This document shows, in pieces, positions 1 through 26,426 of a stretch of DNA of 26,426 bases; positions within the stretch are counted from its first letter, which is position 1; every line of letters begins with the position of its first letter. The DNA comes from a virus. Lineage: Duplodnaviria; Heunggongvirae; Uroviricota; Caudoviricetes. The position numbers were made by a program, and so were the translations under genes. Below the pieces are notes generated by a model. That model did no database searches, was not told where the DNA came from, and was given only the letters and a program-made list of their open reading frames with translations. The DNA is taken from IMG/VR virus record IMGVR_UViG_2540341016_000013. One strand, 5' to 3'.

Positions 1-296
1 ATCCATATCACCACGTCAAAGGGTGACAGCAGGCTCATAAGACGCCCCAGCGTCGCCATAGTGCGTTCACCGAATACGTGCGCAACAACCGTCTTCCGGA
101 GCCTGTCATACGCGTAAAACAGCCAGCGCTGGCGCGATTTAGCCCCGACATAGCCCCACTGTTCGTCCATTTCCGCGCAGACGATGACGTCACTGCCCGG
201 CTGTATGCGCGAGGTTACCGACTGCGGCCTGAGTTTTTTAAGTGACGTAAAATCGTGTTGAGGCCAACGCCCATAATGCGGGCTGTTGCCCGGCAT
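1..296 (-). CDS. insB: IS1 transposase InsB, 5' part only (3' end lies beyond the window start)
   Basis: Start ATGCCGGGCAACAGCCCGCATTATGGG (reverse complement of 270-296) overlaps the insA 3' end in the usual IS1 insA/insB frameshift arrangement; open to the window edge. Confidence 0.85.
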
Positions 297-490
297 CCAA
301 CGCCATTCATGGCCATATCAATGATTTTCTGGTGCGTACCGGGTTGAGAAGCAGTGTAAGTGAACTGCAGTTGCCATGTTTTACGGCAGTGAGAGCAGAG
401 ATAGTGCTGATGTCCGGCAGTGCTTTTGCCGTTACGCACCACCCCGTCAGTAGCTGAACAGGAGGGACAGCTGATAGAAACAGAAGCCAC
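215..490 (-). CDS. insA: IS1 transposase protein InsA
   Basis: 91-aa [31 protein letters not shown]... with the CxxC...CxxC zinc-finger N-terminus typical of IS1 InsA. Confidence 0.95.
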
Positions 491-522
491 TGGAGCACCT
501 CAAAAACACCATCATACACTAA

Positions 523-545
523 ATCAGTAAGTTGGCAGCATCACC
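523..545. repeat. IS1 terminal inverted repeat (insA-proximal end)
   Basis: Sequence atcagtaagttggcagcatcacc is the reverse complement of the IS1 terminal IR; host sequence starts at 546. Confidence 0.85.
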
Positions 546-1309
546 CAAAGCCCTGACGATCAACATCGACCATTACGGTGGCATTCGGTTTATTGCCTGT
601 CAGATAATAATAATCAACAACCGTCATACCCTGGGTATATTTCCCCTGTGTTTCCACGCCAACCCAGCGCTCAACAGAGGTAAATAACTCCGGTTTCAAC
701 AGCCAGGCGATGGTGCATGGGTCATGCAGTGGTGCGCCGACAAAGCCCCATTTTTCGTCTTTATGATATTCGAGGAAGAAATCCAGCAGTTCGGCAACAA
801 TGGTTGAAACAGGGTTGCCAATCGCGCGGAAACGCTCAGTGTCTTCAACGTGGATTTGTGCTTTGTGAGTAACATCCAGACCGGCCATCACCACCGGGAT
901 CCCTGACTGGAAGACAATTTCTGCCGCTTCCGGGTCAACGTAAATATTAAATTCAGCCGCAGGCGTCCAATTACCCAGCCCCATTGCGCCGCCCATAATC
1001 ACGATACGGGCAATTTTGCTATGCAGTTCCGGATGGCTATTGAGCAGCAAGGCAACGTTAGTTTGCGGTCCGGTAGACACAATCGTGACAGGTTCCGCAC
1101 TTTCGCGCAGCGTTTTCGCCATCAGCTCTACCGCCGTACAGTTTTGCGGTGCGAACGTCGGTTCCGGTAATGCCGGGCCATCCAGACCGCTTTCGCCGTG
1201 CACATTGTCCGCGATAATCAACTCACGCATTAACGGTTTTACCGCACCGCCTGCTACCGGAATATCGGTGCGATTAAGCAAGGTCAGCATACGCAGAACA
1301 TTGCGTAAG
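546..1309 (-). pseudogene. rihA: IU-nucleoside hydrolase family gene fragment (RihA-like), truncated at both ends
   Basis: ORF 541-1290 translates to a ribonucleoside hydrolase with the GPQTN motif. Its C-terminus ends ...DVDRQGFG then a TGA supplied by the IS1 terminus. Upstream of 1309 the frame stays open but lacks the N-terminal DxDPGxDD calcium-binding motif, so the 5' end is also missing. The rihA paralog assignment is from memory. Confidence 0.7.
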
Positions 1310-1353
1310 TGATGCGCCGCGCGATAAATGCACTCTATCTTGTGCGATAAATG
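1310..1353. repeat. Prophage terminal transposase-binding-like repeats (Mu attR R1/R2-like)
   Basis: TGATGCGCCGCGCGATAAATGC followed by ACTCTATCTTGTGCGATAAATG: two adjacent 22-bp units sharing GCGATAAATG, starting with TG exactly where hydrolase homology stops. Resembles the Mu right end as I recall it. Confidence 0.6.
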
Positions 1354-1387
1354 GCATCCACGCGGCGTTTCATTATTTGAAAAAGAA

Positions 1388-1960
1388 TTACATTTCAGGT
1401 TGCGTTATGACAGTCCCAACAGGGTGATAGCGGTAGATCGTTGACAGTCCAATATCATAGATAATTGCCAGCCGCTTTCTGTCATACCCTTTCTGGAGCA
1501 ATCTTGCGATCTGCTCATGCTGCTCCTTCGTCAGTTTCGGGCGACGTCCTCCAACTCTTCCTTGTGCTCGCGCAGCAGCCAGTCCTGCCAGCGTGCGCTC
1601 AACTATCAGTTCACGCTCCATTTCTGCCAGTGCACCCATCATATGAAAAAAGAACCTTCCCATCGGAGTGCTGGTATCGATTGAATCCGTCAGACTGCGA
1701 AAATTGACACCTTTTGCGCGTAGCTCTTCTGTGAGAGCAATGAGGTGTTTCATTCTTCTACCCAACCGATCCAGCTTCCAGACCACCAATGTATCCCCTC
1801 TTTTAAGGCACTTTAAAGCGCGTTTCAGGCCTGGTCGTTCCGACTTGGTTCCGCTCATTTTGTCCTCAAAAATCTGTTCACATCCTGCGCACATTAATGC
1901 ATTGCGTTGCAAATCTATGTTTTGGTCATTTGTTGACACACGTATGTAGCCAATCAGCAT
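1388..1960 (-). CDS. Serine DNA invertase (Gin/Hin/Cin/Pin family)
   Basis: [22 protein letters not shown]...[10 protein letters not shown]...[21 protein letters not shown] is a resolvase/invertase catalytic domain with a C-terminal HTH. Start taken at the internal ATG 1958-1960, which has an AAGGGAG SD; the longer ORF N-terminus looks like out-of-gene read-through. Confidence 0.9.
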
Positions 1961-2014: not shown

Positions 2015-2040
2015 GAGAGATAAACGTTGGTTTGGGGGAA
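2015..2040. other. Left recombination crossover site (hix/gix-like) of the invertible segment
   Basis: Reverse complement TTCCCCCAAACC-AA-CGTTTATCTCTC; the shared half TTCCCCCAAACC plus AA core resembles the hix/gix half-site (AAACC-AA-GG). Sits at the outer boundary of the left inverted repeat. Confidence 0.5.
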
Positions 2041-2226
2041 GGCTCTGCATTGCCTGTTGGTGTACCGGTTCCATGGCCCACCGCCACACCGCCAGCAGGC
2101 TGGTTAAAGTGCGACGGGCGCGCCTTTACAAAAGAACAATATCCTGTTCTGGCCAGAGTCTACCCGACCCTCCGTCTTCCCGATTTACGCGGTGAGTTTA
2201 TCCGTGGATGGGACGACGGGCGCAAA
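2027..2226. repeat. Left 200-bp inverted repeat of the invertible tail-fiber segment
   Basis: Identical by eye to the reverse complement of 3445-3644; encodes GEGSALPVGVPVPWPTATPPAGWLKCDGRAFTKEQYPVLARVYPTLRLPDLRGEFIRGWDDGRK in both copies. Confidence 0.85.
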
Positions 2227-2544
2227 GTTGATACAGGACGTAAGTTGCTGTCCGCACAAGGGGCAACGCTGTTAAGAACAGCAATGCTGGATTATTATAA
2301 CCAGGACACTACGGGAACCTCGGGGATAGTCGGCATGGGATTCAACAATGAAGATTCCATTACAGACCTTCGTGAGGGCAGCTTTAAAATGCCGGACGGG
2401 ACAACATTCAGCGATCCTGTCGTGGCAATGTCAGACAATGGTATGCAGGCTACTATTCTGACCTCTATCAGAAGCGGGTATGCGAAGGGTATCACTGTCA
2501 GACCCCGTAGCATTGCACTTAATTACATTGTGAGGGCAGTTTAA
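2032..2544 (+). CDS. Alternative tail-fiber C-terminal cassette (Sv-prime), promoterless in this orientation
   Basis: Frame opens inside the left IR with no genuine start (the listed M is TTG); after the shared IR-encoded region it diverges into a distinct C-terminal domain ending ...IALNYIVRAV; stop overlaps the tfa start (TAATG). Confidence 0.7.
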   Translation: MGEGSALPVGVPVPWPTATPPAGWLKCDGRAFTKEQYPVLARVYPTLRLPDLRGEFIRGWDDGRKVDTGRKLLSAQGATLLRTAMLDYYNQDTTGTSGIVGMGFNNEDSITDLREGSFKMPDGTTFSDPVVAMSDNGMQATILTSIRSGYAKGITVRPRSIALNYIVRAV

Positions 2545-3158
2545 TGAGTAACACTGCAGTTCTGGATGAAAACGGTATCGCCACTGTAGCGGGCGATATC
2601 ACTGTATATCACTATGACGAGGAAACCCGGGAATACACCTCATCCTCTGTGGAGTATCTCGCCCTTGGGGTGGGTACTCCGGCACATTCGTGCGCCGATG
2701 CACCGCCGGAGGCAATTTCGGGTTACGTGGTTTGCCGGACTGCCACGCTGAACGGGTGGGAGCATGTGCCTGATCACCGCGGCGAGACGGTATACAGCAC
2801 GGAGAACGGTAACCCTGTTCTGATTACCCAACCGGGTGATTACCCGGCGGACACCACCACAAAACAGCCAGCCACGCCATGGGATACCTGGAACGGTGAG
2901 GCGTGGGTAACCGATACTGAACGGCAGCGAGCCGCAGAACTGGAGGTTGCCAGACAGCAACGCCAGCAACGGGTGAAACAGGCGATGGCGTCAGTCGATC
3001 TTATCAACCTCAAACTGCGTGCTGGTCGCAGTCTGACACCAGAAGAAACGGCAAAACTGAACGCCGTGCTGGATTATATCGACGAGCTGAACGCACTGGA
3101 TATCAGCACGGCACCTGAAATCAGCTGGCCGGAAGCGCCACTGGCACTTGCCAGTTGA
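2544..3158 (+). CDS. Tail fiber assembly protein (Tfa/U-like chaperone)
   Basis: 204-aa ORF directly coupled to the Sv-prime cassette; N-terminal MSNTAVLDENGIATVAGDITVYHYDEETREYT resembles phage Tfa chaperones. Confidence 0.75.
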   Translation: MSNTAVLDENGIATVAGDITVYHYDEETREYTSSSVEYLALGVGTPAHSCADAPPEAISGYVVCRTATLNGWEHVPDHRGETVYSTENGNPVLITQPGDYPADTTTKQPATPWDTWNGEAWVTDTERQRAAELEVARQQRQQRVKQAMASVDLINLKLRAGRSLTPEETAKLNAVLDYIDELNALDISTAPEISWPEAPLALAS

Positions 3159-3164
3159 ACGGTA

Positions 3165-4456
3165 TCACGCCGCCCTCACGATATAGTTAAACGCGATATT
3201 GCGGGGGCGGGTTATGTTAAAGAATGCTCCGTTTAATTCGGCTTTTGCGCGACTGTTTGTTCCACCCAGAATTACGTACCACAAATAATCGCTACGGTAA
3301 TTCCCCGCAAACACCTTATCGCCGCCATAGTCAATATTATTTCCGTTACTCATGTACGAGATATCAAGCGAAGAATCGTTATCGTCATGACCGCCGACCA
3401 GTGTACCTTTCTGCCATGAAAGCAACTTACGCCCCTCGTCAATCTTGCGCCCGTCGTCCCATCCACGGATAAACTCACCGCGTAAATCGGGAAGACGGAG
3501 GGTCGGGTAGACTCTGGCCAGAACAGGATATTGTTCTTTTGTAAAGGCGCGCCCGTCGCACTTTAACCAGCCTGCTGGCGGTGTGGCGGTGGGCCATGGA
3601 ACCGGTACACCAACAGGCAATGCAGAGCCTTCCCCCAAACCAAGGTAATTGAGGACATCTTTTATACTGCCCTTAGCGATAATAGCGCGACCAATAGCTG
3701 TAAGGGTTGCCAGCGCTGCGCGGTCTGCTCCGGTAAAATAAGGCAACCGATCTGCTGCAGTGGCAAGTCCTGCCAGAGCAGTGAGCGTGGCATCTGCCGG
3801 TTGTTTTCCGTTTGCCAGATCGTATGCAGCCTTGACCGCTTTCGGTGTGGCGGCCAGTATTTCAGACGTGCTGTTGATGGCACTGCTCAGTTGTACGGTG
3901 CCTTTTGCCGTCAGCGAGGCAGCAGGCACTCCCGTTATCTGACTCCACGGGTGAGTGTGGCTGACGGGCGCCTTGCCGGCTGCAAGGTCGTATGCAGCCT
4001 TGACCGCCTTCGGCGTGGCAGCCTCAGTTTCTGATTGACTGTCCGTGGCGCTGCTCAGTTGTACGGTGCCTTTTGCCGTCAGTGAAGCCGCAGGCACTCC
4101 CGTTATCTGACTCCACGGGTGAGTGTGGCTGGCAGGCGCCTTGCCGGCTGCCAGGTCGTATGCAGCCTTGACCGCTTTTGGTGTGGCGGCCAGCGTTTCA
4201 GAGGTGCTGTTGGTGGCACTGCTCAGTTGGGTGAACCCCTTAGCTGTCAGTGTCGCGTCCGGGTGGTTACGGGAACGTACGTGTTCAGCCAGTGACTGTG
4301 CGGCTTCCTCCGTTTTCTTCTTCAGCCATTTCGTCCTGTTTGCCAGTTGCCGGGGGCTCGATTTGATATCCCGTCTGCACCACCCAGAACCGGATCTGAT
4401 GTCTCCAGTTGATAGATATTTTCTTCCCACTTTTCTGTTTCATTCAGGTTTCCCAT
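3165..4456 (-). CDS. Tail fiber protein (P2 gpH / Mu S-like), currently fused to the Sv cassette; apparently frameshifted near the N-terminus
   Basis: ORF 3165-4430 has P2 H-like shaft repeats and a C-terminus ...NIAFNYIVRAA. The only ATG with coupling to the upstream gene is at 4454-4456 (MGNLNETEKWEENIYQLETSDPVLGGADGISNRAP...), which is one frame off and joins the long frame at a 5-nt homopolymer (4352-4356). Confidence 0.8.
3445..3644. repeat. Right 200-bp inverted repeat of the invertible segment
   Basis: Reverse complement matches 2027-2226; lies inside the expressed tail fiber gene. Confidence 0.85.
3631..3656. other. Right recombination crossover site (hix/gix-like)
   Basis: TTCCCCCAAACC-AA-GGTAATTGAGGA; the AAACCAAGGT core matches the hix-type centre as I recall it; at the outer boundary of the right IR. 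Confidence 0.5.
3783..4247. repeat. About 2.8 tandem 168-bp (56-aa) repeats in the tail fiber shaft
   Basis: cgtatgcagccttgaccgc recurs at 3821, 3989 and 4157 (period 168); protein repeats TAKG(F/T)(T/V)QLSSA...AATPKAVKAAYDLAAGKAP(A/V)SHTHPWSQITGVPAASL. Confidence 0.8.

Positions 4457-26286: not shown

Positions 26287-26426
<140 letters not shown>

Follow-up and report, generated by a model that had tools for sequence, protein, structure and literature searches.

The phage to which the prophage described below is most usefully compared is BcepMu (Bcepmuvirus), a Burkholderia phage that was reportedly characterised by Summer et al. in 2004 (J Mol Biol 340:49). Toussaint and Van Gijsegem (2018) are said to have set apart a group of 'transposable phages with a Tn552-related transposase, BcepMu organisation', and Rowland et al. 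(1995, EMBO J 14:196) reportedly found that each end of Tn552 has two directly repeated 23-bp motifs to which the transposase binds. The papers of Summer et al. and of Toussaint and Van Gijsegem are cited in passages of two later articles (PMC5977238 and PMC8705779). Prophages that are related to BcepMu and have an rve transposase characteristically end in TG…CA (PMC2628397), and a 6-bp repeat is the footprint of transposases of the B3/Tn552 family, whereas Mu leaves 5 bp (PMC8705779).

The DNA analysed here (the window) is a complete draft contig of 26,426 bp, APXY01000213.1, from the Escherichia coli assembly GCA_000357565.2. We conclude that a BcepMu-like transposable prophage, one that uses an rve/DDE transposase related to that of Tn552 together with an ExeA-like AAA+ helper, very probably has its right terminus at positions 1310-1387. 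The element is an already known kind, since the family was described in 2004 with BcepMu and near-identical phage and prophage records are public.

The prophage and its host locus

On the host side of the terminus lies the 3' portion of rihA, the gene for a pyrimidine-specific ribonucleoside hydrolase, which the prophage has split. The match to this gene begins at 546 and stops exactly at 1309 (minus strand), and it agrees at 100% of its positions with rihA of E. coli 510016 (positions 1501-2264 of our extracted locus L004), so that the end of hydrolase homology given for position 1309 in the preliminary description is borne out. The remaining 134 bp of the gene, its 5' end, are missing from the window and are present on contig APXY01000214.1. 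At the opposite side, the 3' end of rihA is cut off by a partial IS1 (1-545, minus strand), which lies outside the prophage and bounds the locus. We take positions 523-545 to be the terminal repeat of this IS1, and genes with the Pfam domains IS1 InsA and DDE_Tnp_IS1 are found on the corresponding stretch of sister contigs. The gene has been interrupted by the prophage and additionally by IS1, and the region up to ybeL has been lost. The insertion into rihA is common to at least 19 contigs of sister assemblies.

The prophage occupies 1310-26340 (minus strand) and represents the right-hand 25 kb of a BcepMu-like element, being 98-99% identical to, and collinear with, a prophage of E. coli AR_0086. 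Pfam matches within the window identify genes for a tail fibre, a P2-like baseplate and tail, tape measure, sheath, a Mu-like head, portal, terminase and lysis. The far side is formed by the end of an IS100 element (IS21 family; 26341-26426) that has inserted into the prophage and is 100% identical to the IS100 boundary beside istB in another locus (L017, 8691-8776). The contig stops at 26426 because of this insertion. IS elements are where the contigs of the source assembly break.

The copy in E. coli AR_0086 (L001) is complete, measures 38,169 bp and lies in irp2. From its left end onwards it encodes Mor and GemA, both read outward, then an ExeA-like AAA+ protein, an rve transposase, a DUF3102 protein, a repressor and the lysis proteins, followed by a Mu-like head and by P2-like tail genes in the order gpU, X, D, V, W, J and I. 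It is from this prophage and from others that are 98-99% identical, and not from the source assembly itself, that the genes for the transposase and the ATPase are known. Pfam recognises rve alone in the transposase and AAA_22 in the helper, and no Mu-specific Pfam domain was found in the transposase. The AR_0086 transposase shares 69% identity with BcepMu gp09 over its full length, and a phmmer comparison with PDB sequences returned weak retroviral-integrase/rve matches only (E = 0.006 or worse). The segment AIYDAACAELGMSRATLLRRLKEV, together with a weak HTH_8 match in BcepMu gp09, suggests that the transposase might have an N-terminal helix-turn-helix. Among the complete prophage copies no integrase gene is annotated, and a tyrosine integrase is absent.

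Paired sites at the right terminus

Read from position 1310, the phage side begins with TG and continues as TGATGCGCCGCGCGATAAATGCACTCTATCTTGTGCGATAAATGG. Within it, two copies of GCGATAAATG are found at 1321-1330 and 1344-1353, and because their start-to-start spacing is 23, the repeated units must be 23 nt and not 22 nt long. The terminal unit, R1 (TGATGCGCCGCGCGATAAATGCA; 1310-1332, plus strand), comprises the 5'-TG terminus and the core GCGCGATAAAT. The second unit, R2 (CTCTATCTTGTGCGATAAATGGC; 1333-1355, plus strand), has its core, GTGCGATAAAT, 23 bp past that of R1, and both units are candidate transposase sites. When the terminal 22-mer is compared with Mu R1, 17 of the 22 positions agree, which is the single best score among about 52,800 22-mers on both strands of the window (the next best reaches 15), and CGATAAATG is common to the window's right end and Mu R2. 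The same site agrees with BcepMu R1 at 16 of 22 positions.

Much of the preliminary description of this terminus is upheld by these observations. It had the phage side start with TG, and 1310 is indeed the T of TGATG; it had seen paired candidate transposase sites at the end of a transposable prophage, and the two cores are there. It had also described the pair as 22-bp units resembling Mu R1 and R2, of which the likeness is real and the unit length needs correction to 23 bp.

The alternative that survives best is that the paired repeats are not transposase sites at all, and either arose by chance or serve the neighbouring invertase gene as a terminator or a regulator site. Their position just downstream of the invertase stop is what such signals might occupy, and an imperfect inverted repeat with 83% pairing joins 1310-1321 to 1361-1372. 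We nevertheless consider this very improbable. Across the 26.4 kb of the window the family core GYGMGATAWWT is found just twice, both times at the right end; shuffled sequences lead us to expect 0.12 copies, and none of 100 shuffles contained two. The same pair is present, inverted, at the left end of the prophage, which has no invertase, and it recurs at both ends of BcepMu, a phage without any invertase. Promoter and terminator scans of positions 1200-2200 found no sites of either type. The inverted repeat, for its part, is lost in the right-end variant LR-31. A third, inverted site recalling Mu R3, proposed from the same two arms, was rejected on the loss of pairing in that variant.

Conservation also speaks against signals of the invertase gene and for a transposon end. 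We aligned the window with four diverged copies of the right end, which are 77-84% identical and have other flanks (three of these are genomic, and the fourth record has just two flanking bases). Similarity begins exactly at the T of TGATG in all four. Throughout these copies R1 is nearly invariant and the R2 core, GTG[C/A]GATAAAT, is invariant, whereas the spacer between the cores varies. Further inward, a conserved subterminal non-coding block (TTTCAnTATnTGAAAAAGAAT; 1368-1387, plus strand) continues into the invertase stop, with conservation extending to 1392. This block is kept in five of five right-end variants, including one without an adjacent invertase gene, and might be a third protein-binding site. 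Kept sites, a variable spacer and a conserved inner block together make the pattern that would be expected for protein-binding sites at a transposon terminus. The resemblance between the left and right subterminal motifs, TTTCATTATTTGAAAA and TTACAGTATGTGAAAA, lacks significance, as 22 of 300 shuffles score at least as high. From position, conservation and the analogy with other transposable elements, we infer that the repeats probably act as transposase sites.

The sites also define a simple pattern that can be used to search genomes. Read inward, TGA-N8-GNGATAWWT-N12-GYGMGATAWWT fits four ends, namely the right end in the window, the left end of the E. coli element and both ends of BcepMu. 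A scan of one genome per bacterial species gave at least 120 matches, compared with about four expected by chance (an estimate based on 38 bits and 596 Gb, both strands). Among the matches listed, most come from Beta- and Gammaproteobacteria, and positions that the pattern leaves free are also kept, with the consensus TGAaGcG..GcGaGATAAAT. Both ends of the BcepMu prophage of B. cenocepacia NCTC13227 match, exactly 36,748 bp apart. A quick tblastn comparison tied 28 of the 120 matches listed to recognisable phage genes: 15 lie near Mor/GemA (at about 180 nt) and 13 beside tail-fibre, gpI or invertase genes.

The gene next to the terminus encodes a Gin-family serine DNA invertase of 190 amino acids (1388-1960, minus strand; Pfam Resolvase, E = 6e-51, and HTH_7) that is 76% identical to Mu Gin. 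Its stop codon occupies 1388-1390, which leaves the 78 bp of 1310-1387 before the terminus. Beyond the gene is an invertible tail-fibre segment (2024-3646) bounded by 229-nt inverted repeats (2024-2252 and 3418-3646), whose orientation differs among sister assemblies. In several enterobacterial relatives among the matches listed, an invertase homologue ends 80-115 nt from the terminus, and in this lineage, therefore, the invertase normally lies only a short way from the end. The preliminary description was right about the 78 bp, and right that they leave no com/mom module past the invertase. The Gin-type invertase and the invertible tail-fibre segment form a separate cassette that happens to be the last gene block of the prophage, and because of this no com/mom module is to be expected after it.

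Target duplications and distribution

The distant left end that had been envisaged for this prophage is found on the contig that follows in this assembly, APXY01000214.1, together with matching inverted terminal repeats, the target duplication and the 5' part of rihA. This contig carries gltI-gltJ-gltK-gltL, the start of rihA, the junction of ccttacg with TGATTAGACTTGAGATAAATGACAGGGAATAAGTGAGATATTTATGGG, Mor and a truncated GemA, and it terminates in an IS66-family element. In the orientation of the window, the left junction reads TAATCA followed by CGTAAGGTTTTTT; the left end itself starts with TGATT and carries the same motif pair as the right end, inverted relative to it. The intact rihA site, CATTGCGTAAGGTTTTTT, has a single CGTAAG, and the window junction reads TTGCGTAAG followed by TGATG. 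Comparison of the left junction, the intact site and the window junction establishes a 6-bp target-site duplication, CGTAAG, with its right-hand copy at 1304-1309. The preliminary description had predicted a 5-bp duplication (gtaag, 1305-1309), which has to be replaced by this longer one.

Protein records agree with this length. We predicted the N-terminal RihA fragments that would result from duplications of 0-9 bp and looked each of them up by exact match in a protein collection. The collection includes the 6-bp version (…EKTLRD, 48 aa), which is encoded on APXY01000214.1, and lacks the 5-bp version. The 1-bp and 7-bp versions are also present; these matches are uninformative on the junction because they are plain RihA prefixes labelled 'partial'.

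Other insertions follow the same rule. Independent E. coli copies are flanked by GTTACG in irp2, ACAGAT in idi, ATTACT in an ABC ATPase gene, CGTACA in phoA and GCAGGG in yehY, giving a 6-bp duplication in five of five other insertions, or six of six with rihA. Each of these insertions splits a host gene, and the flanking repeats differ at every site. Among distant relatives, the matches listed from the genome scan include three proper end pairs (in Serratia, for BcepMu in B. cenocepacia, and in a Methylovulum MAG). The Serratia nevei relative has the 6-bp repeat CATAGC. No flanking duplication was found at the BcepMu prophage of B. cenocepacia NCTC13227 or at the Methylovulum MAG pair, and, as the former illustrates, the duplication is not always preserved in the family. 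Family-wide, the six bases outside the ends listed in that scan are biased towards the dyad-symmetric pattern N-C-W-W-G-N, whose centre lies 3 bp from the terminus, which would fit a 6-bp stagger.

The element is common. Of 5426 complete E. coli genomes, 650 (about 12%) carry the 78-bp right end, at 720 places, 15 of them on plasmids. In such genomes the same sequence, with about 99.9% identity in the best matches, starts at window position 1309/1310 beside many unrelated genes. Given the split rihA gene, the duplication and the many unrelated sites, the earlier view that the prophage entered a host gene by transposition is supported. In the source strain the prophage itself has since been altered: IS100 has inserted at about 26341, an IS66-family element lies in gemA, and IS1 adjoins the locus. 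Because of these insertions, this particular prophage may be immobile.

Several deposited phages are close relatives. Escherichia phage PhiKM (PQ738613.1) covers 81% of the window's prophage part at 99.6% identity, and Klebsiella phage KP12 (OM835952.1) covers 80% of it at 86% identity. A prophage of ST131 named 'Entero_P88…' (PV468777.1) and CP025887.1 contain an identical 91-bp end, and Escherichia phage Phi06_2974 B (KM389306/7) is also among the relatives. In the records of PhiKM, KP12, Phi06_2974 B and PV468777.1 the termini are unannotated, and the window differs from them in holding a copy that lies in rihA and has IS insertions. Bcepmuvirus is one of the predicted prophage genera listed in a preprint on ST131, which separately reports reversible inversions in a prophage named 'Entero_P88'.

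With the family described and its mechanism a textbook one for transposable phages, the findings carry little weight as a discovery. Their use lies elsewhere. They supply exact termini and a 6-bp rule for a prophage that about 12% of complete E. coli genomes carry and that disrupts genes such as irp2, phoA, idi and rihA, and they provide a simple end pattern that finds the BcepMu-like family across Proteobacteria. They also correct a mis-annotation, in that a Gin invertase beside a TG end is not enough for a prophage to be called Mu.

Comparison with Mu, BcepMu and Tn552

The preliminary description assigned the terminus to a Mu-type prophage, an attribution that is explained by the Gin-type cassette and the real likeness of R1 to Mu R1. 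If this were a true right end of the Mu/D108 type, a homologue of MuA would recognise it and 5-bp duplications would result. The two systems do agree in the TG terminus, in two adjacent direct sites that have an A-rich CGAWAAA core, and in a Gin invertase and an invertible tail-fibre segment near the end. In other respects they disagree. BLASTP finds no similarity between the AR_0086 transposase and MuA (best E = 0.40), and the protein is instead the close counterpart of BcepMu gp09. The sites of the E. coli element are in a 23-bp phase, compared with 22 bp for Mu R1/R2, and its duplication is 6 bp at every one of the six E. coli insertions, compared with 5 bp. Mu has three sites per end, with R1 and R2 contiguous, whereas two clear sites are seen in the E. 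coli element; between the gin stop and the end of Mu lie 1,044 bp that include com and mom, as against 78 bp here. The early region is inverted as well: the left end of Mu, with c-ner-A-B, is read inward, whereas Mor and GemA at the left end of the E. coli element are read outward, and the tail genes are P2-like. The comparison with the right ends of Mu and D108 that had been suggested for this terminus thus gives a divided result, with R1 matching Mu R1 as described above and a blastn search (word 11) of 50,697 phage records with the 91-bp end finding the same E. coli prophage type only, and neither Mu nor D108. We therefore hold a Mu/D108-type end to be less probable still than repeats of some other function. 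The element is BcepMu-type and not Mu-type, and only its invertase module is Mu-like, apart from the likeness of R1.

That the prophage is instead a site-specifically integrating one with rihA as its attachment site has next to no probability, since, even though some integrase-dependent phages also interrupt conserved host genes, the right end adjoins irp2, idi, phoA, yehY, ssuB and many other genes in other genomes, an rve transposase is encoded and no tyrosine integrase, and the flanking 6-bp repeats are different at each site.

The analogy of Mu, B3 and Tn552 allows a mechanism to be proposed for a BcepMu-like transposable prophage. Its transposase would bind two sites per end through its N-terminal helix-turn-helix region and would pair the ends. 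It should then nick after the terminal CA, and the resulting 3'-OH ends would be joined to target DNA cut with a 6-bp stagger, such that gap repair might yield the 6-bp duplication. The AAA+ protein, if it behaves like its counterparts, would select and deliver the target.

The likeness to BcepMu extends to almost every part of the element. Gene order is the same almost gene for gene, with an ExeA-like AAA+ helper, a Mu-like head and a P2-like tail in both, and both have TG…CA termini with two GNGATAWWT-core sites per end, 23 bp apart. There are also differences: the present element has E. coli as its host, the two DNAs are only about 66-70% identical, over 7.4 kb of late genes, and BcepMu has an acyltransferase gene where the E. 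coli element has its Gin-type invertase and invertible tail-fibre segment. The R1 site of the E. coli element is slightly closer to Mu R1 than to BcepMu R1. The Pseudomonas phage B3 and Tn552 have the 6-bp duplication in common with our element (PMC8705779), and differ from it in that B3 has another genome organisation and Tn552 is a small transposon and not a phage.

The end layout invites one further comparison. A TG terminus followed by two direct, A-rich cores of the CGAWAAA type, one site length apart, is common to phages of the MuA type and to those of the Tn552 type (BcepMu-like), even though their transposases are dissimilar by BLAST. It is conceivable, if rather unlikely, that this reflects deep homology of the end-binding domains, or cross-recognition between Mu-like and BcepMu-like elements that reside together in enterobacteria, with 1368-1387 acting as a third binding site. 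Closer to hand, the layout of two 23-bp motifs at each end that is reported for Tn552 matches the end layout of the E. coli element.

Variation in the tail-fibre and accessory genes

The tail-fibre region includes an invertible segment bounded by 229-nt inverted repeats (window 2024-2252 and 3418-3646) that are 96% complementary. Its orientation varies between sister assemblies of the same lineage (L006, L008 and L011), and in these assemblies it sets the length of the tail-fibre open reading frame at 421, 323 or 443 amino acids. Because the orientation differs among such close relatives, the Gin-like invertase appears to be active. A second kind of variation lies within the tail-fibre gene, where a unit of approximately 425 bp is present in tandem in at least three copies in other copies of the prophage (compare window 3805-4229 with 38183-38775 of L001, the complete copy in E. 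coli AR_0086). The window has fewer copies of this unit, with a fibre of 421 rather than 611 amino acids, and fibre length thus varies with these internal repeats.

Outside the window, the region between the repressor and lysis genes is also variable. Some prophage copies have a DNA adenine methylase gene there (13646-14413 in L001; 13080-13847 in L017, another copy of the prophage) that is absent from others, and this enzyme may correspond in function to the mom-type DNA modification that is missing.

The right end beyond its terminal sites

Window positions 1368-1392 hold the block TTTCAnTATnTGAAAAAGAATTACA, which is kept in all right-end variants, including one that lacks the adjoining invertase gene. 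The left end carries TTACAGTATGTGAAAA at 97-112, although the likeness between TTACAGTATGTGAAAA and TTTCAnTATnTGAAAAAGAATTACA was not significant when tested against shuffles. The same right end is found on a 1,268-bp contig labelled Moraxella osloensis (CAXORL010000041.1; L146), whose invertase is 99.5% identical to that of the window; this contig is probably E. coli contamination of the Moraxella assembly.

Insertion sequences in and beside the prophage

The last 38 bp of rihA have been removed by IS1 (window 1-545; 9785-11801 in L005, a compared locus). In AQET01000023.1, a longer sister contig, ybeL-leuS-lptE-holA comes after IS1 in place of hscC, an arrangement that implies loss of the hscC-ybeQ region through a putative IS1-associated deletion. 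At the opposite edge, the final 86 bp of the contig (26341-26426) match, at 100% identity, the outer end of the IS21-family element IS100 in L017 (8691-8776), from which we infer that IS100 interrupts the prophage just upstream of the holin gene; this insertion explains the contig break at 26426. Furthermore, gemA of the same prophage holds an IS66-family insertion approximately 830 bp from the left end (about 10962-11255 in L026; 11015-13350 in L019), with three open reading frames corresponding to HTH_Tnp_1, TnpB_IS66 and DDE_Tnp_IS66.

Target sites and flanking duplications

We examined the 12 nucleotides outside each of the 120 ends among the matches listed (L034-L153), from a family with at least 120 such ends. 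The six positions exactly outside the terminus exhibit a dyad-symmetric bias, N-C-W-W-G-N, with C in 55 of 118 at -5, A/T in 81 at -4, T/A in 82 at -3 and G in 58 at -2 among the matches listed. This symmetry suggests a weak palindromic target preference in the family. Among the six duplications from E. coli, four look closer to N-G-T-A-(A/C)-N than to N-C-W-W-G-N.

The BcepMu prophage of B. cenocepacia NCTC13227 measures exactly 36,748 bp end to end (contig positions 270179, L036, and 306926, L105), and comparison of its flanks revealed no direct repeat (AGCATG versus AATTGG). In this respect it differs from its E. coli and Serratia relatives, and a rearrangement that followed insertion may have altered its flanks.
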